This document shows, piece by piece, positions 17,791 through 55,347 of a DNA stretch of 58,494 bases. The notes below the pieces were generated by a model. That model ran no database searches. It was not told the DNA's origin and was given only the letters and a program-made list of their open reading frames with translations. How positions within the stretch are numbered: position 1 is the stretch's first letter; each line of letters starts with the position of its first letter. Where the stretch lies: contig CP064998.1 in the NCBI GenBank assembly GCA_016700035.1, positions 857,551-916,044 of the forward strand, in the 5' to 3' direction. A program made the translations under genes and the position numbers. This DNA is from a bacterium (lineage in GTDB: Bacteria > Patescibacteriota > Saccharimonadia > CAILAD01 > GCA-016700035).

Positions 17791-18180
17791 TGGCTATAGA
17801 CAATGAATATAGGGCATCTCCCACAATCCCATTACTACGCTTCTGCCATTGCCAATCACCCGGGGCAGCTTGAGCAATATGTGTTTCGGTTAGAATGGCA
17901 GTAGTCCAGACTACTGCTAGAGATAGGACTGATAATGTAAGGGCTAGTAGTAGCTTTTTATTAAATTTAGAACTAACAGTATGTAATTTATTGCGTGATA
18001 TCACTTGTTTTATACACCCTCTTAATACTCTTCTCTTATACTCTTTCTAGTATTGTAGCATAACCAGATTGGGTGTGAGGAGTGGGTTGGGTGTTTTTTT
18101 GAGGGTGCTTGATTTTGATGCTTTTGACATTGGAGAGATTTATAGAGGTTTGTGTTTATTAAGTAAATAATCCTCTAAGC

Positions 18181-22026: not shown

Positions 22027-25000
22027 TTGAACCCCTTAACTAGTCATAAGTTTAGTCGGTTGTCAGGCTCTAAGGCTAAACTTAGTCGAATTATACAGGT
22101 ACGAAGAAAAACATCTCAACGCAACCCAGGCGAGAAAATGTTTATTGCAATTGTGGCCGTAGCGATTGCCGTAATAAGCTTCTTTTATGCTGGACTACTA
22201 AATGATCGTCACGGCGGTAAGGCTTTTAGTGGTACTGGCGATGGAACAATTTTTATTCCTTATGAGATAGCAACTTGTGACCAACTACAGGAAATGCGTG
22301 ATGACCTCGATGCTAACTATGCCCTAGTCGCCAATATCGACTGTACCGCTAGTTCAAGCTGGAACTCGGGTGCAGGCTTTGAGCCAATTGGCACTAGTTC
22401 AAGCCCCTTTATTGGTTCACTTGAGGGCTACAACTTCACAATTAACGGCCTTACTATTAATCGGCCGAGCTCCACTCAGCCGGTGGGTATCTTTGGCCAA
22501 CTCGGCAATACCGCAGATACCCAATCGATTAGCAGGCAATTTGTGCGCTCTGTTCTTATTACTAATCTTTCTATTGTGGGCGGTACGGCAAATACCGGTG
22601 GGTTGGTTGGCCATTCAATAAATGCAGCAATTGAAAAGGTGCAGATTAACTCCGGATCAGTGTCGGCAAATACTTCAACTCAATTTGTTGGATCTGGCAT
22701 TAGCGACAATACTGCTGGTGGGCTAGTGGGCTACTTTGAACTTCAATGCTCTAGTAATCAAAATCACTATTGTCCAAATACAGGGATACGCAACTCCAGC
22801 TACCACGGATCAATCAATAGTGGCAATGTAGCTGGCGGATTGGTTGGTAAGCTAGCGGCCCATAATGAGTACCCAATCATAACAATAAACAATAGCTACG
22901 CTGATGCCACCACCATCCTAACCGGCAGTGGCAATCAGGCCGGTGGCTTAGTCGGTGTAATGGGAGATGGATATTTATCAAATACTTATGCTAGCGGTAG
23001 CATAAGTGATAACCTAGGGAACACTCAAAAAGATATTGGTGGACTAATTGGTCGCGTGGAAGACTGGGTTGGTCAAGATGGCTCATATACATTCGGTGGT
23101 AACTTTAGTTTAACCACTCTAACTGCTGGTGCTGGTGGGGCAATTGGTCGATCGGCCGATCCATCAATTTCTCCTGTAATTTATTTTGATATCAGCAGAA
23201 GTGGATCTAATACATGTAGTTCAACTGGAGCGGGATATGCTGGTTGTATTGGAGTTAATAGTGGTAACAGTCAGCCAAATTATTTCTTTAATAATACATC
23301 TAACTCGCCACTAAATATATTTGACTTTGTAAATATATGGGACACACAAACTAGTGCTGCGCCAAAACATAAAGCCCAAACACCATTCACTACCCCTGAC
23401 GAAGTTACTGCTCTTTATAAATCAGCACAAGATCAGTCATCGGTCACGGTCACTTGGCTGCCACCAGCTAACGATGGTAACTCCGACACTATTGTTACCG
23501 CCGACAACACCCATTATGTAACGGGCTACACGGTCCAATATCGTGCGCAGGGCGATATTAATTGGCTCACCGCCTATCGAAACACTAGTAGCAGTTACTA
23601 CCAAACAGGCACCGGATCTCCAAGTCCCGTACATCATATAACTGGCCTACAACCAAACACCACCTATGAAGTAAGGGTTGCAGCCTTTAGTCCCCTTGGT
23701 CAGAGCACTTGGTCAAATACTATTACAGCCTCAACAGCGCCAAATTTTTCTGGAACTGGAGCTGGCCTACCAACTAATCCATATATAATTACTACCTGCA
23801 ATCAACTGCAAGAAATTAATAATGATCTAGATGCGCACTACGCACTCGGTAATAATATTGACTGTAGCGGTACATCGAGTTGGAATTCTGGTGAAGGATT
23901 TTCTCCGATTGGAGACTATAAGATCATTGGGCCTACCGGATATGCTAGTGGCTTTAGTGGTACACTAGACGGTCGTAATTATACAATTCAGAGCTTGTAC
24001 GTTAATCAGTCGTCGCGAGCGGGTGTTACTGCCTATCCAAATGGCTATTTTTGCTGTTCGCTCATTACTTCATCTGTAGGGCTCTTTGATACTCTTGGAA
24101 GTGCAATAGTTGTTAATCTATCATTCTCTGGTGGATCTTTGGTTGCTGGAAACACAAAGAATGGCACTACTCTAGCCAGTACGATTGCCGGCCATGAAAA
24201 TGGTAGTACCGTTCAAAATATATCATCCAATGCAGATGTCTCGAGTGGCTTCACTACTGGTGGCTTAATTGGTACTGCCACTGGCAACTATGATGCCTCA
24301 ACTAGCTTTTCGTATGGTGGATCTGCTATTCCTGCACCATTCCGAACCACACTAGAACGACTCAGCTTTTCCGGTAATGTTAGCCCTGGTACTATGAGTG
24401 GCTATAAGCCTACTGGGCAAATTATTGGAAATTCACATAGTGTTAAGCTGCGTGACAGCGTAGCATCAGGCACCACCACATGCGGGCAACATGATTACAC
24501 CATCGCATGTGGCGGCATTGTTGGAAACGAATATGACAGTACACTGGAGCGAGTTGCCTTCACCGGTACAATGGGATATTCATCCAGCCCTATTGGATCC
24601 GGCATGATTGGTAGTTATTCAGATACTTACATGGCCGATCAAACAAACATTACCGATAGTTTTTCTTCTGTAACATCAAGTAGTATGATCCCCAAATGCT
24701 CTGGACTCATTTACTATGTTAACCTATTAATTAACCCCCCCATTGTCTCCAATAGCTTCTATAATGGCACTGGTTGCTCGTCGACTGCAACCTATGGAAC
24801 ACGGATTAACTCAACCAGCTACTTCCAGGATAACAGCACTAATCCGCCATTTAATAATTGGGATTTTAACGGTTACTGGCAGCAAAACTCAGCCGCCTAC
24901 CCCACATTAAAATCTCAAGGTATTCCTGGCGCTCCGCTCACTCTATTTGGCAACTGGCAAAATATTAATGACTTCAAATTAAGATGGGTAGTTCAGCAGG

Positions 25001-28000
25001 ATAACGGTGGATCGACTATTACCGATTACTTAGTTGAATATAAGCTCAACTCAGACGTCAACTGGACCACCCTAACACATGCCCCTCTAGGTGGTAATGA
25101 CAATGTGACTGTACCGAATCTTGATGGCACACAAAGTTATGATTTTAGAATTTCTGCTATCAATGCAATAGGCCAGAGTGCACCAACCAGCTATACAGCT
25201 CAGGCCCAAACCAATATTAGCCCTACACCGCCATCCGAACCAATTGGCCTCTTTGGCGAGGGTGTTTCAGTTAGTCAAATACGAATTAGCTGGGCTGAGC
25301 CGATCTCCAACGGTAATTCACCAATTACAAATTACTCTATTCAATATCGCCCCACTCTTGGTGATGGGTCTTGGACAAGCTACGGATATGTTCCGGCCAG
25401 TAGCTTAACACGTATAATCCCCTCGCTAAATACAAATACTAGCTACGACTTTCGTGTCGCTGCAGTCAACGCTATTGGAGTTGGAGCTTGGTCAGACATA
25501 GCTAGTGCAGCCACTAACCCATCGGGTCCACCCATTCCTGACGACCCACCACCCGGGCCAAGTATTGGCACACCACAAAACCTAAATGCCACTCCGCAAA
25601 TCAATAGGGTTGACCTCAACTGGGATGATGTAGTTGGTGCCGATCATTATACGGTCGAATATAAAGTTTCCTCGGATAGCTCTTGGACTGTAGCCAATGA
25701 CGTATACTCATCATCGGCAACAATTTCTGGACTAGCTACTAACACCTCTTATGATTTTCGAGTTGCAGCAATAAATTCCAGTAGCGAACAAGGTGGCTGG
25801 GCTACTACAAATACCACAACACTAACTCAATCCACATATCACATCACCGACTGCGCCGAACTGCAAGGCATTATGATTGATCCCTACACTTTTCAGTCTG
25901 GCGATCTTACTGGCAACTATATCCTTGATAACGATATAGACTGCTCGGAAACCGCCACCTGGACTTGGGATGGACTTGTTCCAGTAGCTCCAGATGAGCC
26001 ACTTGGCTTCCTTGGCATAATGGATATTACGAATGGCCAGCCATTTACTGGGTCTTTTGATGGGCAGGGTCACACAATTTCTAATGTCTATCAAGACTTA
26101 CAGGGCTTGGCACCCTTCTCAGGTATCTTTGCAGCTGTGGCCGGTTCAACAATTGAGAATGTAACATTTTCCAATGCAACCCTTAAAGGCACAACTACAA
26201 ATACTCTTGGGGGCTCTGGTAGTTACGGCTTGGCTCAAAATGCTGGCTTAGTCAATGCTGGAATGGCAGTGGCAATCGAAAATGTTCATTTTACAGGCTT
26301 AGATATGACTACCTATCCAGGAGTCAATGCTGGCTTAGCTGGAATGCTTAGCATGGGATCGATTGTAGAAAATAGTTCCGTAACAGGCACCACAACAACC
26401 GGTGAACCTTATAGGTATGGTAAGCTAAATAGACCATCTGGTATTGCACGAGACACTAATAATAATATCTATGTTGCCGACACCTATAATAGTCGTATCC
26501 AAAAATTTGATAGTAATGGTAATTACCTACTAACCATAGGTAGTCCAAATGCACTAGACTACTATTCTTCAATAGCAGAACCTAGAGATGTCGTAGTTGA
26601 TGCCACCGGCAACATATTTGTCGCTGATACCGATGAGTATAAAATAAAAAAATATGATAGCTCAGGTAGTTATCTATCCCAGTGGGGGGCATATGGCTCA
26701 GGGAATGGTGAGTTCATTTATCCAGCTTCATTGGCTGTTGACAGCTCTGGAAATATATTAGTTGCCGACTCATACAATAGCCGTGTACAAAAATTTGACA
26801 ACAATGGCAATTATATTTCTCAATTTGGATCAATGGGTTCGGGAAATGGCCAATTTGGTAACTATTTATATATTGCAATAGACAATACAAATAACATCTA
26901 TATTGCCGATCAAGACAATAGTCGTATCCAAAAATTTGATAGTAATGGTAATTACCTACTTCAGTTTGGTACTTCTGGAACCAGCAACGGTGAATTTGAA
27001 AATATAAGCAATATAGCTATTACACCCAACGGACACATTTATGCAGTCGATAATGAATATCGCATTCAAGAATTTTTGTCAGATGGTACCTATCTTAATT
27101 CATGGGCCAATCAAGGGCTAGCTGACGGTAGCTTCATAACGATTGGCGATATTGTCATTAACTCAAGTGGACAGATGATAATATCTGACTATGACACAAA
27201 CTATATTCAGAAATTATCAAGCAATGGTAACTTTATCTCTAAGTGGGGTGGATGGGGTAATGTGCCGTATTCCGGAGGGTATATAATCGGTGGGCTTATA
27301 GGTGGTACTGATATAGGGAGCTCCAGTGGAGATGCAACAACCATAAATCAATCCTTTACTGATATAGATATAGATCTAGATGTGCCAGACTTTGTTGGGC
27401 AAAGCATGGTAGGAGGCCTGACTGGCGGTGGTAATCTAGAAATAAATAATACCTACACAAAAGGAGATACTAATGTTGCGATTCAAGATTTAGCTTACTT
27501 TACTGGTGCCGGGGGTATAAGCGGACAAATAGCTCAAGGCTCAATTAATAATTCTTATGCTTCTGGAGCAGTTACGGTTGCTGGTGATAATATTTTCTCA
27601 GGCGTCGGTGGATTGGTTGGCTTTACGTTTGGTGATATTAATAATTCTTTCGCAATGGGAGAAGTTACGGGCTCAACCGATCTTTATGGTTCAGCTGAGG
27701 TTAATCCAGGAGGCCTAATTGGAATAGTAGGCGCCACAGACCAGAATGATCCTTTCCCAACAATCAACAATAACTACTATGATCAATTTAGAAGTACCCA
27801 GCTAGAATGTGTGGGAGTGTATCTATACCTACAAACAGAAATGGAAGGTTCAGCCCCAGCCAATGACTGCTCGACAGTCAATGACAGCAACAACCAGCCC
27901 GACTACTTCTTTAATAATATTATTAATGCACCACTAACCTCATGGGACTTCACGAATATATGGAAAACCAACACCACTTCCCCGCCTGACTTTGTGGGTA

Positions 28001-31000
28001 GCGGAACTCCAGTTGGCCCTACAGCCCCATCTGTACCACAAAATCTAACTACCACCACCATAACCAGCTCCAGTATTGGTGTCCAATGGCAGGCACCAGC
28101 CTCTAACGGAGGGTCAGCCATCACTGATTACGTTATTCAATATAGACTAAGCGGTGGTAATTGGACTACTTTCAATGATGGCATTAATACAAGTCTTAAC
28201 GCCAACATTACCGGATTATCTCAATCTACTAGTTATGATATTCGAGTCGCCGCAATTAACAATGCTGGCCAGAGTAGCTTCACTAGCCCAATTACCGCTA
28301 GTACCAGTAGCAATATACTTCCCTCTGAGCCACGCAATTTAATTGCCACCAATTACCAATATATTGTCCCCTCTTTAGGTGCTGGACCCCTAGTACTACC
28401 TCATCTTAGCTGGGACTCCCCAGCTACTGGATCGCCTTTCACGGATTATGTTATTGAGTTCAAGCTTCAAGGAGAAACAAACTGGCGCAATTATACCGAT
28501 GGCCAATCCACTAGTACGAATCAAGATTTTGAATTTGGATTTGATGGTATGGATTTTCAAAACTCGAACAATAACACCCCCGAACAAAATGCTCTATTTA
28601 ACGAAGTTGTAGATGGAATAATATTTGGTCAAACCTATGAGTTTAGGGTCGCTGGAGTAAATGCCGTTGGGCAAGGGCCATTTACGCAGCCGATTAGCTA
28701 TGTACCCGCATTAACTGCCAGTGATTGCCAATTATTACATGACCTATTGGCAATGTATGGCATAACCAATGATGATATCGCTATTAATCCCCACTTTGTA
28801 CTCTTCCAAGACATAGATTGTTCCGATACCGTGAATTGGAATAGTGGGGCTGGCTGGAGCCCAATCGTCACAACGGAAGACTATTATTTCTCGGGCACAT
28901 TTGATGGCCAAGGACATAGTATAAGCAATATGTTTATCAACAATGACGATGAAGTCCCTGTAGGAATGTTCGGTATCACGATGCATGCCAGTATCGGTAA
29001 CCTCACACTTGATAATAGCAACATTAGTGGAAGCCTATCGCTCTATGGAGATGATGGAGATTCTGGTGCCCGTGTTGGTGCGCTTGTTGGAATAGCGCGA
29101 TCAGATACAGACATATCAGATGTTACGGTCAGTGGGTCTGTTTTCTCTGGTTATGCTGGTGGTGGACTAGTTGGTTACTCAGAGGCATTCGTTGATGATA
29201 CCAATCTAAGCAATATCAACTCTCACGTTAATATTACTTCCAAAAAAGAAACTTACAGTGGTGGGCCGGTAGGCGGCATTATAGGTGAAGTTTATGGTGG
29301 AGATGATAAACTTGGAACTTTCTCAAATAGTGACTTTGAGATTGACTCACTCGGCAATATTTATGCTATAAATACCTCTTCTACCAATAATAAAATCTTA
29401 CAATTTAACCCTAGCGGACAGCTCACATCCTCTTGGGGTACAGCTAACGATTTTGGGTATTATGGCCCAGGCGAAATGACAATGGACTCCAATGACAATC
29501 TTAACTTTCTAGGTATAAAAAAGTTTAGTGGTACCGGTACACCACTCTCTCAATATAATTATTCTGGACAACATCTATATGCTGATCATGCTGGCAACCT
29601 ATACCTAACTGGGTCTACTGACTATTTCTGGAACGGAACTCCTAAGGCTATTCAAAAGATAGGTAGCGATGGCACACTACTTGCCGAATTCTACACTAAA
29701 GATGAGATTCCAGGCCACATCGATGATCAGATTAACGATCTGGCTGTAGCGCCCAATGGAGACATATTCGTTTCTGCAAAATACAATAGTAATGTTCGGC
29801 ACTATAATTCTAATGGTATATTGCTCGGAAGTTTTGAGCTGGGCGGTGCAAATTACGGTAATCGATTAGTAATAGGTCAAGATGGAAAGCTATATGCCTT
29901 TAATTCTATCGGCATTTACAAGTACGACCTAAGTGGTAATCTAGAGCTTACGATACCATCGATTACCTATAGCGATAGTGTATCCGTAGACGAAGATGGC
30001 AATATCTACGTCGCAAGAAGTCAAACCCATGACGTCACTAAATATTCATCAACGGGAACCGTGCTTGGCCTTATTGAGCCTGGATATAGTGCGGGTGCAG
30101 TAATTAGTCCTAATAAACTAATTATCAAAGATAATAATTTATATGTGGCTGATTACTATCAGAGCTATGTTACCGTTAAGGTTTTTGATAAAAATACACT
30201 CACCTATTTACGGAAGATAGACGGAAAAGAAGATAATAATCCGTATAAAGTAAATATCACAAGTAGTTCAGCTGATGGCCACCTAAACGCAAAGTTTGCC
30301 GGTGGTACAGTTGGGATGCAACGTGGCGACTATACACTTATTGATGACCCTAATGAGATACCAGGCCTCGCAATTGAAGGTGTCAACACAAACACATCTA
30401 TTAATAATGACTGCCAGATAGCAGGAGGCATAATTGGTATCGCTCTTGCCGGTACCGATATCAACACATCAAACGCCCAAGGTAACTTCTCTTGTCAGGG
30501 GGGCAACTATCTCGACACCTCAACGCAGGTAAAAATTGCAGTCGGTGGTATTAGCGGGTTCCAAGGTTACTATTCAGCTCTACGCATCTCAAATTCCACA
30601 TTCAATGGAGATATTGCTGCAGTCCCGTACAACAATGATGATAGCACCGTCTATGCTGGTGGCATGGTCGGCATCTCCTCATCAAATATTGGGTACACCT
30701 ATCCTTCCGACATCATACCTGAAGACTACCTAAATAAACGAGGCTTAGTAATTAATGGCGGTTCGGTATCGGCCAATGTTCACGCATCTATAGCTAAAAA
30801 CGGTGGCGGAAGTGGGGGTGCAATCGGTGATGCTGAAAGTGCAGCTTTAAGTGGTGTGACCGTACATGGCAGTGTCCTTACCGATCAGATGGGCCTTCCA
30901 CGCACAACTGGCAGCGAGTATGCTGCTGGGGGCGTAATAGGTAGAAGTAGAATTATTGACATTGAATCAGTAAGTGCTAACAATTCTGTAAACACCTACA

Positions 31001-34000
31001 CCCCTGAAGGAGTTAGTACCATATTTGCCGGTGGCATACTTGGTGTAAGTGATGTATATCAAAACTTCTCTAATGTAACTCGCTCAGGTGACATTACCAT
31101 TGACGGGAGAGCCGATATACCTACTAGTGGCTCTATATCGACTATGGCGGGAGGCGGCTTGATTGGGTCGGCTACTAGTTACGACGAATCAAGATTTGAA
31201 AACAGTACTTCATCAAGCAACATTAGCCTCAATGGGGTTCGCGGAGGAGATCTGAATTATGGCGCACGTGCCGGTAGTGCAGGAGGTTTAATTGGATCAG
31301 CCGAGAGCAGAATAGCTCTAAATATTATCAACAGCTCATCAAGTGGCAATATCATGACTCAATCAGGCCTACCAGACCAAGACTCACACCGCTACTTCTA
31401 TGGATCCGCCTCCCTTGGTGGACTGGTTGGTAGTTTCCGCAGTAGTTTTAATAGCACTGGCGAGATTAATGTTGCCGATTCCCACAGTAGCGCAAGCGTA
31501 TCTGGTCCAGCATTTAGTCTTGGTGGCGCATATGCTGGTCTTGGTGGTGGAAGTGGCGGTCTTGTTGGATTAATTGTATCGGCAAGCGGAGGAAGTATTG
31601 AACGTTCATTCTCAACCGGCAATGTTGATAGTTCTTATGCTGGTGGCCTGGTAGGTAATATCCTAGGTGGTACTACGGTCAACTCTAGCGATAATCTTTT
31701 CACTATAAAAAATACCTATAGTACCAGCGCTGTAACTGCTCAAGATTTTTATATTGATACCGAGTTAGATGGCCAACCCATAAAGGCTGGGTTCTCTGGA
31801 ATTGCTGGTGGATTAATTGGTGGCTCCTCTGGAGTAAATATTGAAAATTCATATTCTTCAGGTATTGTGCGGGCATCTAATGGAGTGGACTATACTGGCT
31901 TTGAAATAAGCTCAACCTATGACCTCATAGGGTCAATGACGCCAAAGGGTAGTATTGCCGGTGGGCTAATCGGCCAATATTCACAAAATTACTATTCAAT
32001 GCTACCTCCAGATTACGATACATTCTATATTGCCAACTCATATATTAAGAACTCCTTTACGACAAGCAAGGTGGAAGGACCCAGTAGCGGCAATAAGGGC
32101 TCACTCGTAGGTATTTTTTATGATTATCTATCAATAGCTCTGCCACTATCTGGCAATGCCATTAATTTAGATCCCAATTTACTTATTACGCCGGAGGAAT
32201 CTCTCGAGAATAATTATTATGATATGAATCGAGTCGACCAGAATGTATGCAGTAATGAATACCTTCTAGTTAGCTTTGATCCACCTGCTACTCAAAATGG
32301 AATGCCAACTAATGTCATTACCGATACTCGTCCAGTAAATGACTGTCAGGTAGTAAATACTGATGGCACACAACCCAACTATTTTATAAATAACCATACT
32401 AATCCGCCTCTCAATGTTTGGGATTTTACGAGCGTCTGGAAAACCAACTACAATACTTATCCTGACTTCATTGGTAGCATTGAACCCCAAACCCCTCCGC
32501 CGCCACCCCCTCCGCCACAACCTCCAGCCCCCTCCCCATCACCGACCTCAACGCCAAGCCCAACCCCTACTCAGTCGCCTAGCTCAACCGTCAGTCCAAG
32601 TAACTCGCCTACGGTCAGCCCTAATGCCGGTGGATCAGGTAGCCATAGCGCCAAACCAACCAGTACTCCAAGCACAACTCAAATTTCTGACAGAGATGGT
32701 AGTCTACTTAAAAAAATAAGTGCCTTCATTGGTGCCTTAGCTCCTAGCGCCCTTATGATTGGAAACAGCTTACTGTTGCTGTTGCTACTATTGGCTATTT
32801 TCTACCTATACCAAAGCTGGCGCGAATACCAAGCCCAAGCACGCCTCAAAAAAATTACAGCCCGCTATCAAACTACTAAACAACTCCGAGACGATTTTAC
32901 AAACATAGCCTCACACTACCTAAATACTCCAATTCAAATTATGCAAGGCAGTGTTGAACTAGCTCGAAACACCCTGCCGACCATGCAATCACAGCTAAAT
33001 AGCCTTGATGCCTCGCTGAGGATTATGGCTGAAGACACCAAGGCGATTCTTAACTCCATCAACGAACCACCTAATCCAATCAGCCACACTATTGAGACCA
33101 CTAAAGTAGATAGTTGGGTTGGGTTGCTACGCAGGCCAGGATTATGGCTACCAATTGTCAGTACTGCCATACTGCTAATAATCTTCGATGTAACCGTCTT
33201 GTTAGTCGGTAAAATGGGTGGCAACCCTTACATACTGGGCATACAAATCTGCTTCTTCATCTTTGTATGTGCAATCCTAATCTTTACCTACCGAGCCAAG
33301 GTCCGCCTAAAGCGATTATCACAACAGGCCGAGTACACCCTAAGCCTAACTCGGTCACTTGATAAAGATAGAATTAATTTTATTAAAACTACCACTCGCC
33401 AGCTTCAAGAAGACCTCGACGCCATCCGCACCTCAGCGCACCGCTTAATAGCCACTGGAAAAGTACCTAATTTTGCCAGTGGACTAGGCATGGCCGAAGG
33501 CACCCTATTAAACCTTAAGCGCATCGAATCCGCCACCGATCAACCAGCCGAAACGCCACCAACCATCATGACACCTTGGCTCGATGAAAACATTCCAAAA
33601 ATTAAAGTCTTTGTAGAGGAGTCAGATTTAGCCTTCGAAGCTCAAACTGATCGTAATATTGCCATTGCGCTGCCAGTCGATAGCCTAGCTCAACTGATAG
33701 GTTCACTCATAGGTAATGCCGTAAAATTCACGCCTAGCGGAGGTAAAGTCACCCTTTCATTAAGTCAAAAGGGAGATAATGCTCATCTTCTTGTAGCCGA
33801 CACCGGGGCTGGCATTGATCCAGAAAAAGCCAAGAGCCTCTTCCAGCCATTCTCGCGCGGAACTAGCTCTCTCACTTATGATTATGAGGGTGCTGGCCTA
33901 TCTCTCTATATTAATAAACTCATAGTGGACCGAGCCGGCGGTACTATCAAAGTAGAATCAAAGCCAAAAAATGGCACTTCAGTACATGTTACACTACCAA

Positions 34001-34014
34001 TCAATAAGCTGTAG
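22027..34014 (+). CDS. giant (3,995-aa) membrane sensor histidine kinase with a ~3,500-aa extracytoplasmic GGLxG-repeat / FN3 / NHL-propeller array
   Basis: One uninterrupted ORF (TTG at 22027 with AAAGGA 8 nt upstream; alternative ATG at 22138). TM1 is at 22138-22200. There are four supermodules, each opening with CxQLQ...DLDAxYAL.NxIDCS...WNSGxGFxPIG. GGLVG/GGLIG repeats are numerous. There are six FN3 domains, two NHL-type repeat blocks and a PST linker. The C-terminus has the H-box FTNIASHYLNTPI plus N, G1, F and G2 boxes. Confidence 0.85.
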   Translation: MNPLTSHKFSRLSGSKAKLSRIIQVRRKTSQRNPGEKMFIAIVAVAIAVISFFYAGLLNDRHGGKAFSGTGDGTIFIPYEIATCDQLQEMRDDLDANYALVANIDCTASSSWNSGAGFEPIGTSSSPFIGSLEGYNFTINGLTINRPSSTQPVGIFGQLGNTADTQSISRQFVRSVLITNLSIVGGTANTGGLVGHSINAAIEKVQINSGSVSANTSTQFVGSGISDNTAGGLVGYFELQCSSNQNHYCPNTGIRNSSYHGSINSGNVAGGLVGKLAAHNEYPIITINNSYADATTILTGSGNQAGGLVGVMGDGYLSNTYASGSISDNLGNTQKDIGGLIGRVEDWVGQDGSYTFGGNFSLTTLTAGAGGAIGRSADPSISPVIYFDISRSGSNTCSSTGAGYAGCIGVNSGNSQPNYFFNNTSNSPLNIFDFVNIWDTQTSAAPKHKAQTPFTTPDEVTALYKSAQDQSSVTVTWLPPANDGNSDTIVTADNTHYVTGYTVQYRAQGDINWLTAYRNTSSSYYQTGTGSPSPVHHITGLQPNTTYEVRVAAFSPLGQSTWSNTITASTAPNFSGTGAGLPTNPYIITTCNQLQEINNDLDAHYALGNNIDCSGTSSWNSGEGFSPIGDYKIIGPTGYASGFSGTLDGRNYTIQSLYVNQSSRAGVTAYPNGYFCCSLITSSVGLFDTLGSAIVVNLSFSGGSLVAGNTKNGTTLASTIAGHENGSTVQNISSNADVSSGFTTGGLIGTATGNYDASTSFSYGGSAIPAPFRTTLERLSFSGNVSPGTMSGYKPTGQIIGNSHSVKLRDSVASGTTTCGQHDYTIACGGIVGNEYDSTLERVAFTGTMGYSSSPIGSGMIGSYSDTYMADQTNITDSFSSVTSSSMIPKCSGLIYYVNLLINPPIVSNSFYNGTGCSSTATYGTRINSTSYFQDNSTNPPFNNWDFNGYWQQNSAAYPTLKSQGIPGAPLTLFGNWQNINDFKLRWVVQQDNGGSTITDYLVEYKLNSDVNWTTLTHAPLGGNDNVTVPNLDGTQSYDFRISAINAIGQSAPTSYTAQAQTNISPTPPSEPIGLFGEGVSVSQIRISWAEPISNGNSPITNYSIQYRPTLGDGSWTSYGYVPASSLTRIIPSLNTNTSYDFRVAAVNAIGVGAWSDIASAATNPSGPPIPDDPPPGPSIGTPQNLNATPQINRVDLNWDDVVGADHYTVEYKVSSDSSWTVANDVYSSSATISGLATNTSYDFRVAAINSSSEQGGWATTNTTTLTQSTYHITDCAELQGIMIDPYTFQSGDLTGNYILDNDIDCSETATWTWDGLVPVAPDEPLGFLGIMDITNGQPFTGSFDGQGHTISNVYQDLQGLAPFSGIFAAVAGSTIENVTFSNATLKGTTTNTLGGSGSYGLAQNAGLVNAGMAVAIENVHFTGLDMTTYPGVNAGLAGMLSMGSIVENSSVTGTTTTGEPYRYGKLNRPSGIARDTNNNIYVADTYNSRIQKFDSNGNYLLTIGSPNALDYYSSIAEPRDVVVDATGNIFVADTDEYKIKKYDSSGSYLSQWGAYGSGNGEFIYPASLAVDSSGNILVADSYNSRVQKFDNNGNYISQFGSMGSGNGQFGNYLYIAIDNTNNIYIADQDNSRIQKFDSNGNYLLQFGTSGTSNGEFENISNIAITPNGHIYAVDNEYRIQEFLSDGTYLNSWANQGLADGSFITIGDIVINSSGQMIISDYDTNYIQKLSSNGNFISKWGGWGNVPYSGGYIIGGLIGGTDIGSSSGDATTINQSFTDIDIDLDVPDFVGQSMVGGLTGGGNLEINNTYTKGDTNVAIQDLAYFTGAGGISGQIAQGSINNSYASGAVTVAGDNIFSGVGGLVGFTFGDINNSFAMGEVTGSTDLYGSAEVNPGGLIGIVGATDQNDPFPTINNNYYDQFRSTQLECVGVYLYLQTEMEGSAPANDCSTVNDSNNQPDYFFNNIINAPLTSWDFTNIWKTNTTSPPDFVGSGTPVGPTAPSVPQNLTTTTITSSSIGVQWQAPASNGGSAITDYVIQYRLSGGNWTTFNDGINTSLNANITGLSQSTSYDIRVAAINNAGQSSFTSPITASTSSNILPSEPRNLIATNYQYIVPSLGAGPLVLPHLSWDSPATGSPFTDYVIEFKLQGETNWRNYTDGQSTSTNQDFEFGFDGMDFQNSNNNTPEQNALFNEVVDGIIFGQTYEFRVAGVNAVGQGPFTQPISYVPALTASDCQLLHDLLAMYGITNDDIAINPHFVLFQDIDCSDTVNWNSGAGWSPIVTTEDYYFSGTFDGQGHSISNMFINNDDEVPVGMFGITMHASIGNLTLDNSNISGSLSLYGDDGDSGARVGALVGIARSDTDISDVTVSGSVFSGYAGGGLVGYSEAFVDDTNLSNINSHVNITSKKETYSGGPVGGIIGEVYGGDDKLGTFSNSDFEIDSLGNIYAINTSSTNNKILQFNPSGQLTSSWGTANDFGYYGPGEMTMDSNDNLNFLGIKKFSGTGTPLSQYNYSGQHLYADHAGNLYLTGSTDYFWNGTPKAIQKIGSDGTLLAEFYTKDEIPGHIDDQINDLAVAPNGDIFVSAKYNSNVRHYNSNGILLGSFELGGANYGNRLVIGQDGKLYAFNSIGIYKYDLSGNLELTIPSITYSDSVSVDEDGNIYVARSQTHDVTKYSSTGTVLGLIEPGYSAGAVISPNKLIIKDNNLYVADYYQSYVTVKVFDKNTLTYLRKIDGKEDNNPYKVNITSSSADGHLNAKFAGGTVGMQRGDYTLIDDPNEIPGLAIEGVNTNTSINNDCQIAGGIIGIALAGTDINTSNAQGNFSCQGGNYLDTSTQVKIAVGGISGFQGYYSALRISNSTFNGDIAAVPYNNDDSTVYAGGMVGISSSNIGYTYPSDIIPEDYLNKRGLVINGGSVSANVHASIAKNGGGSGGAIGDAESAALSGVTVHGSVLTDQMGLPRTTGSEYAAGGVIGRSRIIDIESVSANNSVNTYTPEGVSTIFAGGILGVSDVYQNFSNVTRSGDITIDGRADIPTSGSISTMAGGGLIGSATSYDESRFENSTSSSNISLNGVRGGDLNYGARAGSAGGLIGSAESRIALNIINSSSSGNIMTQSGLPDQDSHRYFYGSASLGGLVGSFRSSFNSTGEINVADSHSSASVSGPAFSLGGAYAGLGGGSGGLVGLIVSASGGSIERSFSTGNVDSSYAGGLVGNILGGTTVNSSDNLFTIKNTYSTSAVTAQDFYIDTELDGQPIKAGFSGIAGGLIGGSSGVNIENSYSSGIVRASNGVDYTGFEISSTYDLIGSMTPKGSIAGGLIGQYSQNYYSMLPPDYDTFYIANSYIKNSFTTSKVEGPSSGNKGSLVGIFYDYLSIALPLSGNAINLDPNLLITPEESLENNYYDMNRVDQNVCSNEYLLVSFDPPATQNGMPTNVITDTRPVNDCQVVNTDGTQPNYFINNHTNPPLNVWDFTSVWKTNYNTYPDFIGSIEPQTPPPPPPPPQPPAPSPSPTSTPSPTPTQSPSSTVSPSNSPTVSPNAGGSGSHSAKPTSTPSTTQISDRDGSLLKKISAFIGALAPSALMIGNSLLLLLLLLAIFYLYQSWREYQAQARLKKITARYQTTKQLRDDFTNIASHYLNTPIQIMQGSVELARNTLPTMQSQLNSLDASLRIMAEDTKAILNSINEPPNPISHTIETTKVDSWVGLLRRPGLWLPIVSTAILLIIFDVTVLLVGKMGGNPYILGIQICFFIFVCAILIFTYRAKVRLKRLSQQAEYTLSLTRSLDKDRINFIKTTTRQLQEDLDAIRTSAHRLIATGKVPNFASGLGMAEGTLLNLKRIESATDQPAETPPTIMTPWLDENIPKIKVFVEESDLAFEAQTDRNIAIALPVDSLAQLIGSLIGNAVKFTPSGGKVTLSLSQKGDNAHLLVADTGAGIDPEKAKSLFQPFSRGTSSLTYDYEGAGLSLYINKLIVDRAGGTIKVESKPKNGTSVHVTLPINKL
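26400..27255 (+). other. NHL-repeat beta-propeller block 1 within the giant ORF
   Basis: About 7 units of the type NNIYVADTYNSRIQKFDSNGNYLLTIGS...G.GNGEF. Two units share 44 identical nt (26488-26531 and 26917-26960). Confidence 0.8.
29320..30200 (+). other. second, more divergent NHL/YVTN-like propeller block within the giant ORF
   Basis: Repeated G(N)IY(V)A..... patterns: DSLGNIYAIN, HAGNLYLTG, APNGDIFVSAKYNSNVRHYNSNG, GQDGKLYAFN, DEDGNIYVARSQTHDVTKYSSTG, DNNLYVADYY. Confidence 0.6.
32485..32700 (+). other. Pro/Ser/Thr-rich low-complexity linker preceding TM2 of the giant ORF
   Basis: Translation PQTPPPPPPPPQPPAPSPSPTSTPSPTPTQSPSSTVSPSNSPTVSPN..., followed at 32720-32815 by a hydrophobic helix (LLLLLLLLAIFYLY). 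Confidence 0.85.
32890..34011 (+). other. histidine-kinase core of the giant ORF: DHp with H-box, TM hairpin, degenerate second DHp, HATPase_c
   Basis: His codon at 32914-32916 (aa 3630) in SHYLNTPI. Two TM helices at ~33140-33295. FIKTTTRQLQEDLDAI at ~33371-33425 looks like an H-box without the His. N box GNAVKFTPSGG at ~33710, G1 DTGAGI at ~33800, F box FQPFSRG, G2 GAGLSL at ~33890. Confidence 0.8.
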
Positions 34015-34156
34015 TAGCTAATCTCGTCATGCTTGCGCAGTCATTGTGACACCTCCCACCATAAGCTTCTTACACAATGCTTAACTACTTTATCTAATAG
34101 ATATACTAATAATGCACGAAGCACACATAACCAACATTAGTTAGCTCAAGCTTGTG

Positions 34157-34372
34157 TTACCCCTGCAATCTTGTTTTGGGTTCTCCAACCGTAAGCTCTG
34201 CACTAATCCAACTGACTTTAGCGATATTGTCTGCACCGTCTACCGCTACACCATAGACATCATCAAATAAGCCACTAAACTCACTCCCGTAGTCCCAACC
34301 AAAGCTTGAAGTATAGCTCGGACTATCACTCGATGCAGTGTTAGCTCTTGGAGCATAGGCGCCAAATAAAAA
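34157..34372 (-). pseudogene. 5' remnant of an NHL-repeat surface protein gene (paralog of 37539..39950)
   Basis: The minus-frame translation FGAYAPRANTASSDSPSYTSSFGWDYGSEFSGLFDDVYGVAVDGADNI aligns with residues ~30-78 of the 803-aa NHL protein (SLYAPGVHAAPTDVPAFHSMINRFDPASANGKFSDAYGVAIDSSGNI). There is no start codon, and similarity ends after ~50 aa. Confidence 0.65.
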
Positions 34373-34379
34373 ATAGCCC

Positions 34380-34395
34380 TGTAGAACACACTACA
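34380..34395. promoter_or_regulatory. perfect 16-bp palindrome TGTAG-N6-CTACA, candidate Crp/Fnr-family operator (copy 1)
   Basis: tgtagaacacactaca lies 92 nt upstream of the Crp-family gene ATG. It sits within a ~75-nt block that is ~90% identical to 40000-40075. Confidence 0.5.
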
Positions 34396-34486
34396 GCAAA
34401 AGTATAAGCTATTTGTATATAGCTTTATATCATTTATATAAAATATTTTACAAAAATCTCTGTCTAGCATATTATTAATATCAGTC

Positions 34487-35140
34487 ATGAGTTTTTTTCA
34501 ATATGCCCACTCCCATGAAAAGTTTTTTAAGGCTCAAGGTAGAGCCAGCCAAATAAAACGGGGTCAACTACTTACTAATAACCTATCAGATAATACAAAT
34601 GTTTTCTTTCTGTATAAGGGCTTGGTGCAGGTTTCCTTCAATTTGCTAGATGGAAGCGAACGACTAATTGGCTATTTTCTACCTGGTATGACCTTTGCCC
34701 AAAGTGGATCTTTCTTTCAGGACGATGGCGGACAATTAGAATACACCACCGTGCAACCATCGACTATCTATCACATATCTAGAGACATATTTCAGAAACA
34801 GCTACAAACTAATCAACAGTTCAATACAGACTATTTGGACATGGTTTTACGTAATCAAATATTTTTAATCGATAGAATTGTGTATCAGGGTGAAAACGGG
34901 GCGGAGAAGAAATTTATAAAATGGCTACTTTTTATGGCCAAGTACTATGGTTGTCAGACAAAAAATAATGAAGTAAAAATCACTATCCCAATCAGCCAAG
35001 AAGGTATTGCTAATTTCCTGCATGTCACGCGTGTTAGCGTTAATAAAATAATTAGAGAAATGAGAACTAAAGATTTAATTCGTATTGAGCAAAAGCAAAT
35101 TATTATTTGCGATGCAAATACATTACGTAATCTTCTTTAA
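34487..35140 (+). CDS. Crp/Fnr-family transcriptional regulator
   Basis: 217 aa. N-terminal cNMP-binding-like beta-roll (FFLYKGLVQVSFNLLDGSERLIGYFLPGMTF) and C-terminal HTH (ISQEGIANFLHVTRVSVNKIIREM). Confidence 0.85.
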   Translation: MSFFQYAHSHEKFFKAQGRASQIKRGQLLTNNLSDNTNVFFLYKGLVQVSFNLLDGSERLIGYFLPGMTFAQSGSFFQDDGGQLEYTTVQPSTIYHISRDIFQKQLQTNQQFNTDYLDMVLRNQIFLIDRIVYQGENGAEKKFIKWLLFMAKYYGCQTKNNEVKITIPISQEGIANFLHVTRVSVNKIIREMRTKDLIRIEQKQIIICDANTLRNLL

Positions 35141-37538: not shown

Positions 37539-39950
37539 TTATAATCCGGTATTTGGTGCGCCGATTACTGATTGAGCTAGGCCGGCCGGGTCCTTAATTA
37601 TGCCGTCTACAAGACCATCAATATCCCGTTCACTGCCATCAGTTATTTGATAAGTAACCACCGTTACCGTATGTCCGTTAATGTTTTGAGTTGATATATT
37701 AGCGTCACTAATGGTGAAATAGGCATTTGTGTTAGGATTATGCTTTCTCAGTACTCTACCATCTGGTGAGATGTCATAATAATACAGTTTAATAGTTGTG
37801 GTGTAGCCTGGAGTACCGCAATCTGCCTCAAAATCCCAAAGTCCACTTTCGTAATTGTAAGCAGAGTCTTGGACGGCTAACTGATCTTCAAGAACATAAT
37901 CATCGGTGGTCAATTCGCAAGCATTGCCAACATCAATCGCTGTAATTTTACCAGTAATTGGGTTAGTGTAGCCACCAACGTTTGGCTGAGTGCTATCGGC
38001 TATACTGTCGCCATTTAGGTCTGTACTAACTTCATCTGGGCCATACTTAAATATCTGAATACGCTCGTTGTCGCTATCGGCCACCATCACAGTATTGCCA
38101 TTGGCTGATACTTGCAACCCCTCTGGGTGATTAAACTGGCCATCACCAGTTCCAGGCGAACCCCATTTTGCTAGGAAGTTACCGTTGGCATCAAACTTTT
38201 GTACACGAGCGTTGTCATAATCTAGGGCATAGACATTACCCTGACTATCAACATCTACGGCGCTAACAGCGCTAAATTCGCCATCACCAGAGCCACTTGA
38301 ACTGTCACCACCGTTAGCACCCCATTTGGAGACAAAAGTACCGTTGCTGCTAAACTTTTGAATGCGGTTATTATACATATCGGCTACATAGATATTGCCA
38401 CTAAAGTCAGTAGCTACACCTGCTGGTGCGCTAAATTCACCATCGGCATTACCAGATGTACCGAACTTAGAAATAAACGCGCCAGTGGTGCTATTGAGTT
38501 TCTGGATGCGATAATTCCCCTCGTCTACCACCAATAGATTGCCATCGGGAGCTATAGCTATGCCTCGTATACCATTAAACTCACCATCACCCGAGCCACT
38601 TGAGCCATCACCGCCATTAGCGCCCCATTTAGCAATGAAGTTACCGTCGCTGTCTAGTTTTTGGACACGGTAGTTATTAGCATCGCCAACATATACGTTA
38701 TCTGACGAGTCAATTATGATTGATTCTGGGAAGTCAAACTCGCCATTTCCAGTACCATTGGTGCCATCACCACTATTGGCTCCCCATGCTTCTATAAACA
38801 CGCCACCGCTAGTAAATTTTTGAATGCGATTATTAGCCCCATCCGCTACATATATGTTACCGTGGCTATCTTGAGCCATGTCTCGCGGTGCGTTAAATTT
38901 GCCATTATCGCTAGACGGACTAATATCTAGTTCGCCATATTCACCAAATTGGCTTACAAAAGTTCCGTTGCTGGTAAATTTCTGGACGTTCTCGTTGCTA
39001 GAATCTGTGACATATATATTATTAGATGCATCGTGTGCTATACCTCTGGGGTTATCAAATGCACCATCTTCGCTATCTTCGCCGTATACACCGAAGCTAG
39101 ATTGAAAATCATAGCTAGAATTAAATTTCTGCACCCGATCTTGACCCCTATCCACGACATAGATATTCCCATTACCATCCACCGTTACAGAATAGACATT
39201 GTTAAACTCGCCATCGGCGCTCCCCTGCGAGCCAAACTGGCTAATGTAGTTACCGCTATTGTCAAACTTCTGGATACGGTAGTTGTTTGCATCTACGACA
39301 TAGACATTATCTGTAGAGTCAACCGCTAAACGAGTTAATCCATCAAAATCGCCATCATCATTCCCCTGCGAGCCGAATTGACTAATGTAGTTACCGCTAT
39401 TGTCAAACTTCTGCACGCGGTAGTTGTCATCATCCGTTACAAATAAATTGCCAGTTGAATCTATGGCTATGCCGTTAGGAGTGTCAAACTGGCCATCAGC
39501 ACTCCCCTGCGAGCCAAACTGGCTGATGTAGTTACCGCTATTGTCAAACTTTTGTACGCGGTTATTGCCGGTGTCTACCACAAAAACATTGCCCACTGGG
39601 TCAATGGCTATATCGCGCGCATAATCAAACTGGCCATCGCCACTACCAGAGGTTCCCCACTGCGAGATATATGTGGAGCTAGAGTTAAACTTCTGCACAC
39701 GGCTGTTGTCTCGGTCTAGTACGAATATATTTCCCGACGAATCAATCGCAACACCGTAAGCATCACTAAACTTTCCATTAGCAGATGCCGGGTCAAACCG
39801 ATTGATCATAGAATGAAACGCCGGCACATCAGTTGGTGCCGCATGTACTCCTGGCGCATACAAACTTAACGAAATAATACCTAGAATAAGAAAGCATCCG
39901 GCTAGGGCTTTGGATGATCTTTGATTAAACTTAAGAATTCTTTGTTTCAA
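37539..39950 (-). CDS. secreted NHL-repeat protein (two propellers) with a C-terminal pre-anchor domain ending in APNTGL
   Basis: 803 aa with a signal peptide. About 12 units of NxRVQKFDNSGNYISQFGSQGSADGQF. The C-terminal ~170 aa are homologous to the C-terminal domain of the sortase substrate at 15522-16100. Confidence 0.85.
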   Translation of the reverse strand: MKQRILKFNQRSSKALAGCFLILGIISLSLYAPGVHAAPTDVPAFHSMINRFDPASANGKFSDAYGVAIDSSGNIFVLDRDNSRVQKFNSSSTYISQWGTSGSGDGQFDYARDIAIDPVGNVFVVDTGNNRVQKFDNSGNYISQFGSQGSADGQFDTPNGIAIDSTGNLFVTDDDNYRVQKFDNSGNYISQFGSQGNDDGDFDGLTRLAVDSTDNVYVVDANNYRIQKFDNSGNYISQFGSQGSADGEFNNVYSVTVDGNGNIYVVDRGQDRVQKFNSSYDFQSSFGVYGEDSEDGAFDNPRGIAHDASNNIYVTDSSNENVQKFTSNGTFVSQFGEYGELDISPSSDNGKFNAPRDMAQDSHGNIYVADGANNRIQKFTSGGVFIEAWGANSGDGTNGTGNGEFDFPESIIIDSSDNVYVGDANNYRVQKLDSDGNFIAKWGANGGDGSSGSGDGEFNGIRGIAIAPDGNLLVVDEGNYRIQKLNSTTGAFISKFGTSGNADGEFSAPAGVATDFSGNIYVADMYNNRIQKFSSNGTFVSKWGANGGDSSSGSGDGEFSAVSAVDVDSQGNVYALDYDNARVQKFDANGNFLAKWGSPGTGDGQFNHPEGLQVSANGNTVMVADSDNERIQIFKYGPDEVSTDLNGDSIADSTQPNVGGYTNPITGKITAIDVGNACELTTDDYVLEDQLAVQDSAYNYESGLWDFEADCGTPGYTTTIKLYYYDISPDGRVLRKHNPNTNAYFTISDANISTQNINGHTVTVVTYQITDGSERDIDGLVDGIIKDPAGLAQSVIGAPNTGL

Positions 39951-40468: not shown

Positions 40469-40509
40469 CCATGGAAAAAGCCAGACCGTTGGTCTGGCTT
40501 TTTCCATGG
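40469..40509. terminator. bidirectional rho-independent terminator hairpin abutting the tRNA 3' end
   Basis: Perfect 19-bp inverted repeat ccatggaaaaagccagacc gtt ggtctggctttttccatgg. The GC core gccagacc/ggtctggc has an A-run on one side and a T-run on the other. Confidence 0.75.
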
Positions 40510-40815
40510 CTCCGGGGGCCGGATTCGAACCGGCGGCCAATTGGTTACACCTGCCTCATATTTTCATACAAGAGTGGACTATCTCATCATCCATTATGGA
40601 TGCAGGGCGCTATCTGAGAGATTATTGTTGGGCTCACTCTCTAGTCTCTGAACCTTCCGAGAACCTTTATCCCATTCTCGGCTTGGCTGCGGATTACCAT
40701 ATCCTACAACTCTCTTTGGACGTAGGCTTCCCGCAATTCACCCTGTTTTCACTACTTAATTACTTAAGTAGGCTGCCTTTAACAGCCAACTGCTCTACCG
40801 CTGAGCTACCCCGGA
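40507..40815 (-). tRNA. tRNA-Asn(GUU) interrupted by a group I intron in the anticodon loop
   Basis: The exons (40815-40782 and 40547-40507) join to UCCGGGG UA GCUC AGCGGUA GAGC A GUUGG CUGUUAA CCAAU UGGCC GCCGG UUCGAAU CCGGC CCCCGGA G CCA. This gives a perfect 7-bp acceptor stem, a 4-bp D stem, 5-bp anticodon and T stems, U1-A72 and G73 as in E. coli tRNA-Asn, and an encoded CCA. Confidence 0.9.
40548..40781 (-). ncRNA. group I self-splicing intron, 234 nt, no ORF
   Basis: All four classical conserved elements are present on the minus strand: P gaauugcgggaag (~40727-40739), Q aauccgcagcc (40685-40695), R guucagagacua (40642-40653), S gagauagucc (40576-40585). P1 pairs exon GGCUGU with guide GGCAGCC, with U.G at the 5' splice site. 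The intron ends in G. P2 has a GUAA loop and P9 a GAAA loop. Confidence 0.85.
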
Positions 40816-46728: not shown

Positions 46729-46732
46729 CCCC

Positions 46733-47551: not shown

Positions 47552-47554
47552 ACA

Positions 47555-47809: not shown

Positions 47810-47810
47810 A

Positions 47811-48152: not shown

Positions 48153-48158
48153 GTACTC

Positions 48159-48293: not shown

Positions 48294-48338
48294 ATCTGCA
48301 ATAGTATACCGACTTTTGCAATAAATTTCAACCCTAAT

Positions 48339-48412: not shown

Positions 48413-48454
48413 CTAGTAGTATACTGAGTAAAGCTATGTGAAGGAGTGGTGAGT

Positions 48455-51295: not shown

Positions 51296-51306
51296 GATGA
51301 TAAAAA

Positions 51307-55346: not shown

Positions 55347-55347
55347 A

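Follow-up and report, generated by a model that had tools for sequence, protein, structure and literature searches.

The window, by which we mean the whole stretch of 58,494 nucleotides analysed (contig CP064998.1 of assembly GCA_016700035.1, positions 857,551 to 916,044 of the forward strand), comes from a member of the Saccharibacteria (TM7). At 22027-34014, on the forward strand, it carries a giant gene in which an adhesin-like surface domain is joined to a histidine kinase, and the analysis confirms that this gene is real. The listing of open reading frames (ORFs) gives a single uninterrupted frame of 3,995 codons plus stop. The chance of a stop-free run of that length at the base composition of the window is about 1e-104, and the second-longest ORF of the window encodes 959 aa. 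An earlier note on this DNA had proposed a one-frame fusion of a 3,995-aa product, adhesin-like ectodomain to kinase, and the proposal is borne out by the ORF itself, by Pfam matches, by Logan contigs and by orthologs at two loci, here called L003 and L004, found in metagenome-assembled genomes (MAGs) of Candidatus Saccharibacteria. A TTG start at 22027 has an AAGGA Shine-Dalgarno-like motif 7 nt upstream of it. The first 37 residues are rich in Lys and Arg and include an extension, RIIQVRRKT, that resembles the N-terminus of the L003 ortholog, so translation probably starts upstream of Met38.

Domain architecture of the giant protein

Hydropathy marks four hydrophobic helices, at aa 39-58, ~3572-3596, ~3704-3727 and ~3734-3757. 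The first lies in an N-terminal segment (22027..22224; all features of the gene lie on its own strand, the forward one) delimited by hydropathy and family pattern, which consists of a K/R-rich region (aa 1-38), the helix (aa 39-58) and the polar stretch NDRHGGKA, ending in G-K-A and followed by FSGTGDG. Many relatives have a hydrophobic stretch and then an A-x-A site with FSGxGxG (SPSLANA/FSGSGAG, ARA/FTGSGDG, AKA/FSGAGAG), and a hydrophobic helix near the N-terminus is present in 79 of the 89 long members of the family. The pattern suggests that aa 39-58 are probably a Sec signal peptide, cleaved between A66 and F67, rather than a permanent transmembrane (TM) anchor. If the signal peptide is cleaved after A66, the outer tip of the mature protein would be free and the C-terminal membrane module would be its sole anchor. 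The picture of an ectodomain bounded by TM helices, put forward in the earlier note, accordingly stands at the C-terminal side, where TM2 is found, but probably not at the N-terminal side, and the hydrophobic helices number four instead of two.

The ectodomain, about 3,400 aa in length, comprises four GLUG beta-helix modules and six FN3 domains, with two beta-propellers inserted in the last two modules; borders were set by iterated profile searches within the protein. The presence of GLUG, FN3 and NHL modules had been recognised before, and Pfam agrees, returning six fn3 stretches (190 bits), NHL at 114 bits, SGL and other propeller matches, and GLUG (PF07581) above its cut-off of 20.5 in two segments, at 22.6 and 24.0 bits. 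Every GLUG module has a conserved head, I..C.QLQ...Y.L..DIDCS.T..WN.G.GF.PIG, and a conserved tail, C..VN...QPNYF.NN..NPPL..WDF..WKT...YP.F, and the protein contains 23 GG[LIV]xG motifs.

GLUG module 1 (aa 76-459; 22252..23403), found by profile search and supported by an AlphaFold2 (AF2) model and by Foldseek, is followed by FN3 domain 1 (aa 460-568; 23404..23730), by GLUG module 2 (aa 583-974; 23773..24948), found by profile search, and by FN3 domains 2-4 (aa 970-1059, 1072-1161 and 1183-1264; 24934..25818); all FN3 domains were identified by both Pfam and profile search. GLUG module 3 (aa 1268-2004; 25828..28038), likewise identified by both, has its 22.6-bit GLUG match at aa 1780-1990 and encloses an NHL beta-propeller (~aa 1445-1760; ~26359-27306) whose blades start at aa 1470, 1519, 1566 and 1614. 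Beyond FN3 domains 5 and 6 (aa 2004-2091 and 2124-2225, domain 6 with an insertion; 28036..28701) lies GLUG module 4 (aa 2227-3496; 28705..32514), the source of the 24.0-bit GLUG match. Its second, irregular beta-propeller (~aa 2470-2860; ~29434-30606), with SGL, SBBP and WD40-like matches at 2508-2690, precedes a long GGLxG-rich beta-helix region, and this part of the protein is collinear with L003 at 49% identity.

The AF2 model of GLUG module 1, made with 18 homologous modules, is all-beta, with pLDDT 86.4 and pTM 0.89. Compared by Foldseek, the model best matches the beta-helix of BACOVA_03286 (3n6z, E 1.4e-5) and then the N-terminal beta-helix of pneumococcal and Gemella M26 IgA1 proteases (7uvl, 7uvk, 6xja; E 1e-4 to 1e-3, template-modelling score ~0.46-0.49), with SRRP adhesins, pectate lyases and phage tailspikes far weaker. 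A PDB sequence search with the GLUG module gave no match, and fold comparison alone found these relatives. A protease reading of the ectodomain was ruled out because no HExxH motif occurs anywhere in the 3,995-aa protein. The Pfam scan contains no M26 catalytic domain (Peptidase_M26_N reaches 14.9-17.5 bits, below cut-off) and no SLH match; there is no C-terminal LPXTG, the sole match being LPLSG at aa 3372, which is internal. Together these observations support an adhesin-like array of beta-helix GLUG, FN3 and NHL modules.

Between ectodomain and kinase lies a linker of 74 aa (aa 3487-3560; 32485..32706) made up to 70% of Pro, Ser and Thr. It begins with a run of eight prolines, and L003 and L004 have equivalent stretches. 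Gram-positive surface proteins have wall-spanning Pro-rich regions, and by analogy the linker probably forms a flexible stalk reaching through the cell wall.

Integrity of the fused gene

The closest loci were searched for in a collection with one genome per species, and the two nearest to the window are those in the MAGs L003 and L004. The L003 ortholog has 3,095 codons (NCBI MFO0955449.1, 3,052 aa), and its protein is collinear with aa 2001-3991 of the window protein at 49% identity over 2,008 aa, a span that takes in ectodomain, linker and kinase junction. Its locus is syntenic with the window at three places, namely the upstream OB-fold gene, the giant gene itself and everything from 40.85 kb onward, with protein identities of 55-79% in the syntenic parts. 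L004 shows the tail motif, the Pro-rich linker, a TM helix and the H-box in the same order, up to the end of its contig. The same succession of tail motif, Pro-rich linker, TM helix and kinase module, present in L003 and L004, also occurs in protein P0121 and in more than 80 proteins over 1,000 aa. By sequence comparison, then, the orthologs settle that the ORF is not an assembly chimera.

Two independent Logan contigs, L001 and L002 (SRR14092363 and SRR14092366), are identical to window 32483-34510 and 32531-34371 but for one synonymous SNP (single-nucleotide polymorphism), and neither has a stop in the main frame anywhere from the Pro-rich linker across TM2 to the kinase. Both begin at the poly-Pro run, and the join of ectodomain to linker in this organism is covered by the window assembly alone. 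The gene caller divided the Logan fragments into two genes, the first of which ends at window 32719. Since this is also where a 101-aa ORF in another frame ends, the split is a gene-calling artefact, the caller having evidently taken that ORF. That ORF (32414-32719, forward strand), inside the Pro/Ser/Thr-rich linker, is almost certainly spurious.

A kinase core split by a membrane hairpin

Beyond the linker, hydropathy and the AF2 model place TM2 (aa ~3572-3596; 32740..32814), which is continuous with helix 1 of a first DHp, the helical dimerisation and phosphotransfer domain. This hairpin, DHp1 (32815..33066), is predicted to be cytoplasmic; it carries the H-box FTNIASHYLNTP and the proposed phospho-acceptor H3630 (codon 32914-32916). 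Both methods then give a membrane hairpin, TM3-TM4 (aa ~3704-3727 and 3734-3757; 33136..33297), with an outside loop of about 6 residues. A second helical hairpin, DHp2 (33298..33537), continues directly from TM4 and has R3791 (codon 33397-33399) at the canonical His position. The last element is the ATP-binding CA (HATPase_c) domain (33559..34011), with N3897, D3925-x-G-x-G3929, P3941-F3942 and G3955-x-G3957-L; HATPase_c (PF02518) scores 83-87 bits at aa 3885-3992, against a cut-off of 26.4. Thus TM3, TM4 and a DHp hairpin devoid of His (aa ~3704-3837) stand between H-box and CA domain. The K/R-rich segments after TM2 and TM4, together with the very short loop that joins TM3 to TM4, indicate a cytoplasmic location for DHp1, DHp2 and CA alike.

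The arrangement is conserved across the family described below. Over 137 members the H-box consensus is [FY][LIV]x[IL]x[ST]-H-Y-L-N-T-P. The column of H3630 is His in 136 of the 137, with Tyr at +1 in 128, Thr at +4 in 132 and Pro at +5 in 135, and the N, G1, F and G2 box residues of CA are 96-100% conserved. The DHp2 column opposite the canonical His, occupied by Arg in the window, is His in only 2 of 137. TM2, TM3 and TM4 are all hydrophobic in 130 of 137 members, with a TM3-TM4 loop of 5-6 residues, as judged by column-wise hydropathy, which was used instead of a crude count of hydropathy peaks between His and N box that proved too noisy.

The two hairpins are homologous. Aligned profile to profile by hhalign, DHp1 and DHp2 match in register with a probability of 88-95% (E 3e-6 to 6e-8), which makes DHp2 a diverged duplicate of DHp1. 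The HisKA of ordinary kinases aligns to DHp2 with its His opposite the Arg, and a HisKA profile made from 101 ordinary kinases matches DHp1 in 135 of the 137 members and DHp2 in 2. When the family profile is compared with HK853, the H-box helix of the latter falls on DHp1, and its helix 2 and CA fall on DHp2 helix 2 and CA. In a mutual-information analysis of DHp1-DHp2 contacts (average product correction, APC; 137 sequences), a few hub columns dominated.

An AF2 model of the module, made with 32 family sequences and numbered by query position q (protein numbering minus 3539), reached pLDDT 81 and pTM 0.72; the latter value suggests some confidence in how AF2 arranges the parts with respect to each other. 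In the model a 72-residue helix, q39-110, takes TM2 straight into DHp1 helix 1, with H3630 at q91; DHp1 helix 2 (q112-140) is followed by a disordered link, TM3 (q165-188) and a 6-residue loop; a 76-residue helix, q195-270, then carries TM4 into DHp2 helix 1, and DHp2 helix 2 (q275-298) leads to the alpha/beta CA domain. The earlier note had proposed a structure prediction of this region, and the kinase-like DHp/CA fold is indeed what the model shows, but as two hairpins separated by TM3-TM4. In both hairpins the residue at the His position, H3630 or R3791, is 34 residues below its own TM helix, and the two first helices are equally long. This fits side-by-side packing of the hairpins, but it may simply reflect duplication. 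Foldseek comparison of the kinase module returned HK853, WalK, ZraS, CpxA and BceS, the longest alignment being that to BceS (8g3a_D), with 328 columns.

An unnamed family of probable receptor kinases

With the last 456 aa as query, HMMER was run exhaustively against 1.84 billion cluster representatives and found 197 proteins at E<1e-30. Among the 149 matches listed, the window's own fragment excluded, 136 cover query residues ~36-455 unbroken, always at the C-terminus of the protein. Members are 423-4,413 aa long (median 1,464), with 36 exceeding 2,000 and 4 exceeding 3,000, and they are 21-53% identical to the window module (L003 47%, P0121 53%). Their N-terminal parts vary widely and include NHL propellers, Big_7, fn3, GLUG, DUF11, DUF285, TIG and F5/8-C. 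At least two paralogs occur in one MAG, GCA_964409615.1, and all members with a source organism name are assigned to Saccharibacteria or to "Patescibacteria group".

Existing annotations of these proteins read "fibronectin type III domain-containing", "6-bladed beta-propeller", "hypothetical" or "signal transduction histidine kinase". The members with precomputed Pfam results, P0001 and P0243, carry PF02518 alone, and the members that were scanned likewise have no HisKA above cut-off. A word-indexed protein search, run with the single module and then with the family profile, was swamped by ordinary kinases sharing CA words and returned only two family members, P0001 and P0243; it took the exhaustive HMMER search to bring out the family. 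No NCBIfam model reaches its cut-off, Pfam has no model for the architecture, and a full-text search of the literature found no description of this split-core giant receptor kinase architecture, which agrees with the statement in the earlier note that no such family had been described. Orthologs, which the same note had proposed to look for, proved plentiful: besides L003 and L004 there are at least 136 diverged proteins with the same C-terminal module. Its idea that the protein is among the largest sensor kinases conceivable needs qualifying, as the family includes a member of 4,413 aa. On sequence criteria, a probable receptor histidine kinase family specific to the Saccharibacteria, with at least 136 sequence clusters, is present but unnamed in public data. 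The protein of the window has a class I sensor kinase fold in a structurally distinctive family variant; it is not the only protein of this sort, nor the largest.

Search for an output partner

No receiver domain was found in six frames of the window (best score 2.2 bits, with positive controls at 98-122 bits), so that the absence of a response regulator from these 58 kb, noted earlier, is upheld. None was found either in the flanks of L003, L004, L021/22 and L023/24, giving 0 of 5 family loci; the flanks scanned were at least 8 kb around the four complete genes and about 1.8 kb upstream of the truncated L004. Ordinary kinase loci scanned in the same way had a receiver domain in 62 of 80. These 80 control loci came from a metagenome scan with a generic N-box pattern, which returned ordinary kinases only. 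The difference between 0/5 and 62/80 corresponds to a hypergeometric p of ~0.001-0.004, calculated by hand for loci that are not fully independent.

The gene downstream (34487-35140, forward strand) encodes a Crp/Fnr-type regulator, as had been noticed before; its identity is supported by matches to cNMP_binding and HTH_Crp_2, but the gene is not conserved at the syntenic L003 locus, where a trehalase and an unrelated gene occupy the equivalent place. For lack of a counterpart there it is not a conserved partner, and it was rejected as the output partner. Response regulators are known from Saccharibacteria: CheY-like ones have been proposed as guides of twitching motility (10.1101/211649), and a BceRS-like pair has been described (PMC7567580). 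An unlinked response regulator is therefore plausible.

Proposed mechanism and alternatives

We assign a probability of roughly 0.6 to the reading that the gene encodes a receptor-type histidine kinase with a split core, belonging to a Saccharibacteria-specific family. From an export signal, the chain runs through the extracellular array of about 3,400 aa and the 74-aa Pro/Ser/Thr-rich linker into TM2 and DHp1 with H3630, recrosses the membrane via TM3-TM4, and descends as the His-less DHp2 that holds CA. Because the sole conserved His lies on hairpin 1 and CA lies on hairpin 2, CA, if the protein is an autokinase, must phosphorylate the His of the other hairpin. Two geometries would allow this. 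The two hairpins of one chain might pack into a four-helix bundle, a pseudo-dimer imitating the dimer of a normal kinase; alternatively, phosphorylation would take place between chains brought together. The phosphoryl group would then pass to a response regulator whose gene lies at another place in the genome. A flexible linker of 74 residues cannot relay piston or rotation movements, so the ectodomain would most likely signal through tension, or by clustering once attached to a surface, the host cell envelope for instance, more plausibly than by classical allostery. That the ectodomain senses contact or the host is a hypothesis.

Several points weigh against this reading. Pfam HisKA (PF00512) scores 17-21.7 bits at aa 3621-3666, below its gathering score of 26.9. 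HisKA kinases are reported to use Glu or Asp after the His for catalysis, and the window protein has Tyr there, which explains the low HisKA score and may alter the catalytic mechanism. Autophosphorylation, the acceptor residue and the partner are predictions from sequence and model, and the signal peptide is assigned from a sequence pattern alone. The pairing of a canonical HisKA with HATPase_c in the earlier note can be kept for the H-box and for HATPase_c, but not for a canonical HisKA, given the sub-threshold score, the Tyr at +1, and the TM hairpin and His-less DHp2 in between.

Among the alternatives, the strongest, although improbable, is a surface adhesin or structural protein whose kinase-like module serves as a mere membrane anchor or a silent pseudokinase of the DivL type, with no phosphorelay. 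The absence of a response regulator near any family locus examined would suit such a protein, as would the sub-threshold HisKA score, the Tyr in place of the acidic residue after the His, and the loss of His from the hairpin beside CA. A plain anchor, however, needs none of the catalytic residues, and members only 21-53% identical to the window module keep the His in 136 of 137 and N, DxGxG, PF and GxGL at 96-100%. Such near-invariance is expected only with selection on both ATP binding and the His.

Somewhat less credible still is an active kinase whose ectodomain is an enzyme or attack device, glycan- or protein-cleaving, with the kinase reporting on or regulating that activity. The likeness of the GLUG module to the IgA1-protease beta-helix, and more weakly to pectate lyases and phage tailspikes, together with weak SGL/lactonase-like propeller matches and the large cell-wall hydrolases also encoded in the window, would agree with this. 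The protein has neither the HExxH motif nor an M26 catalytic domain, though, and the lyase and tailspike matches are weak (E>0.07, template-modelling score ~0.2-0.3). The free variation of ectodomain composition among members (NHL, Big_7, DUF11, DUF285, TIG, F5/8-C) is also more typical of binding modules.

That the protein is an ordinary two-TM sensor kinase, its H-box leading directly into CA, as the earlier note had it, and only its size unusual, is very unlikely: H-box and HATPase_c are both there, but so are two extra TM helices and a second DHp hairpin (aa ~3704-3837), conserved in 130 of 137 members and confidently modelled. An assembly artefact, in which separate genes for an adhesin and a kinase became fused at the low-complexity Pro-rich stretch, would account for the start of both Logan contigs exactly at the poly-Pro run (window 32483 and 32531) and for the two genes called on them, but it has a negligible probability, given the other-frame ORF of 101 aa that explains the split, the main frame open throughout, and the order of tail motif, linker, TM and kinase shared with L003, L004, P0121 and the more than 80 proteins over 1,000 aa.

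The split-core receptor kinase reading can be extended to a class of single-chain pseudo-dimers, in which the duplicated TM-DHp would replace the second subunit, with a single acceptor His on one hairpin and a single CA on the other, and interchangeable giant ectodomains would report host attachment or pulling to unlinked CheY-like regulators, for example those proposed to steer type IV pili. We regard this extension as tentative and rather doubtful.

Comparison with known systems

The closest likeness is to class I HisKA kinases such as Thermotoga HK853, WalK/YycG, CpxA and ZraS. These give the best Foldseek and PDB profile matches for the fold of DHp hairpin plus CA; the CA domain has all ATP-binding boxes, a TM helix runs on into the DHp helix, and the H-box reads SHYLNTP in the window protein and SHELRTP in the class I kinases. 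Unlike theirs, the His hairpin of the window protein is not the one attached to CA, a TM hairpin and a His-less DHp coming between the two; Tyr follows the His, the ectodomain is 10-20 times larger, and no response regulator is adjacent. Three textbook class I features are absent from the window protein, namely a Pfam HisKA match above threshold, a His-bearing DHp contiguous with CA, and an acidic residue after the His. The intramembrane-sensing kinases of the BceS type, with two TM helices, a minimal outer loop, DHp and CA, have exactly the layout of the TM3-loop-TM4-DHp2-CA half of the window protein. In BceS, however, that DHp bears the His, and the kinase has BceAB and an adjacent regulator as partners, whereas DHp2 of the window protein has no His and is preceded by a full ectodomain-TM-DHp unit.

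A helical domain that stands beside CA without a phosphorylatable His is also known from CheA (class II) and from DivL-type proteins with a His-less DHp. CheA presents an acceptor His on a separate unit to its CA, and the logic in the window would be similar, by analogy and not by membership: CheA chains match the window module over the CA domain only, no Pfam match to HPt (P1), H-kinase_dim or the CheW-like P5 appears in the C-terminal 504 aa at E up to 10, and the acceptor unit of the window is a duplicated class I DHp tethered through the membrane. The hybrid two-component systems of Bacteroides share with the window extracytoplasmic beta-propellers in a sensor kinase, where they are thought to bind surface glycans. 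These hybrids, of ~1,300 aa, have Reg_prop/Y_Y_Y, a contiguous HisKA-HATPase and their own receiver and AraC output, none of which the giant protein has; it gave no Pfam match to Response_reg, HTH_AraC or Y_Y_Y.

The ectodomain has its own relatives. With the GLUG/M26 IgA1 proteases and the FN3/NHL-rich surface proteins the window protein shares the beta-helix (3n6z, S. pneumoniae, Gemella), GLUG, fn3, NHL and a weak Peptidase_M26_N match, but, unlike them, it has no protease domain, LPXTG or SLH, and its C-terminal anchor is the kinase module. With cell-wall-anchored adhesins and S-layer proteins it likewise shares repetitive beta-rich modules, but not a C-terminal sorting or SLH signal.

The Saccharibacteria live as obligate epibionts; their genomes are tiny and hold very few genes for signalling. 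A conserved, multi-paralog family in which a kinase would be coupled to large surface-binding ectodomains that diversify fast presents an obvious candidate for host recognition and response. Annotation by domain (HATPase_c only, "FN3 domain protein", "6-bladed beta-propeller") conceals this family. H3630, N3897 and the ectodomain modules offer concrete targets for the genetic systems now available in the phylum. An acceptor His on the hairpin other than that of CA would force cross-hairpin phosphorylation. If the hairpins pack within one chain, the protein would be a natural single-chain kinase dimer, useful for the study of cis and trans autophosphorylation and of asymmetry.

Gene neighbourhood and other features of the window

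Beside the giant gene lies a variable island (window 34.0-40.9 kb, L003 11.4-14.9 kb), whose gene content differs wholly between the two, flanked in each by the syntenic blocks. The island of the window holds the Crp/Fnr gene, an NAD-binding oxidoreductase, a UDG-family glycosylase, DUF1697, an NHL protein and an intron-containing tRNA; that of L003 holds the trehalase and a weak cyclase-like gene. The NHL protein, a stand-alone NHL-repeat propeller of 803 aa (37539-39950, reverse strand; NHL 240 bits), is encoded 3.5 kb downstream of the giant gene, and in L004 a 49% identical homolog is found immediately upstream of the family gene. The kinase family may therefore travel together with stand-alone surface proteins of the NHL type. 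The L004 family gene (1848 onward) opens in the middle of an NHL propeller, without start or signal peptide, and is overlapped by an ORF in another frame at 1144-1878 (listed as 1144-1881) that also encodes NHL repeats, which suggests a frameshift near 1850-1880 of this MAG contig, either a sequencing error or a pseudogene.

The tRNA gene of the island (40507-40815, reverse strand) is interrupted by a group I intron (40555-40793; Rfam RF00028, 93.8 bits). ARAGORN with default settings reports no tRNA in the window, and with the intron option it reports a tRNA-Thr(TGT) with a 234-nt intron; the flanks of the split tRNA form normal acceptor, D and T arms. Farther on, at 46261-52359, is a replication-origin cluster with a jag/KhpB-like R3H protein, yidC, dnaA (48446-49861), dnaN and recF. 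The presence of yidC, jag, dnaA, dnaN and recF places the giant gene about 14 kb from the likely oriC.

Upstream of the giant gene, a 451-aa ORF with BNR/Asp-box repeats (a sialidase-like propeller; 16649-18004, reverse strand) sits in the sole stretch of the window with 52.5% G+C, against ~43% elsewhere, and may have been acquired horizontally. At the other end, 53445-58227 on the reverse strand encodes two adjoining large proteins, a 726-aa fusion of GDSL lipase, phage-tail lysozyme and M23 peptidase and a 959-aa protein with a VanY D-Ala-D-Ala carboxypeptidase domain at its C-terminus. The two ORFs overlap by 278 nt, and the start of the 726-aa gene (53445-55625, reverse strand), at its 55625 end, is uncertain. 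Both products are predicted to be active on cell walls and are candidate enzymes for attack on, or remodelling of, the host envelope.

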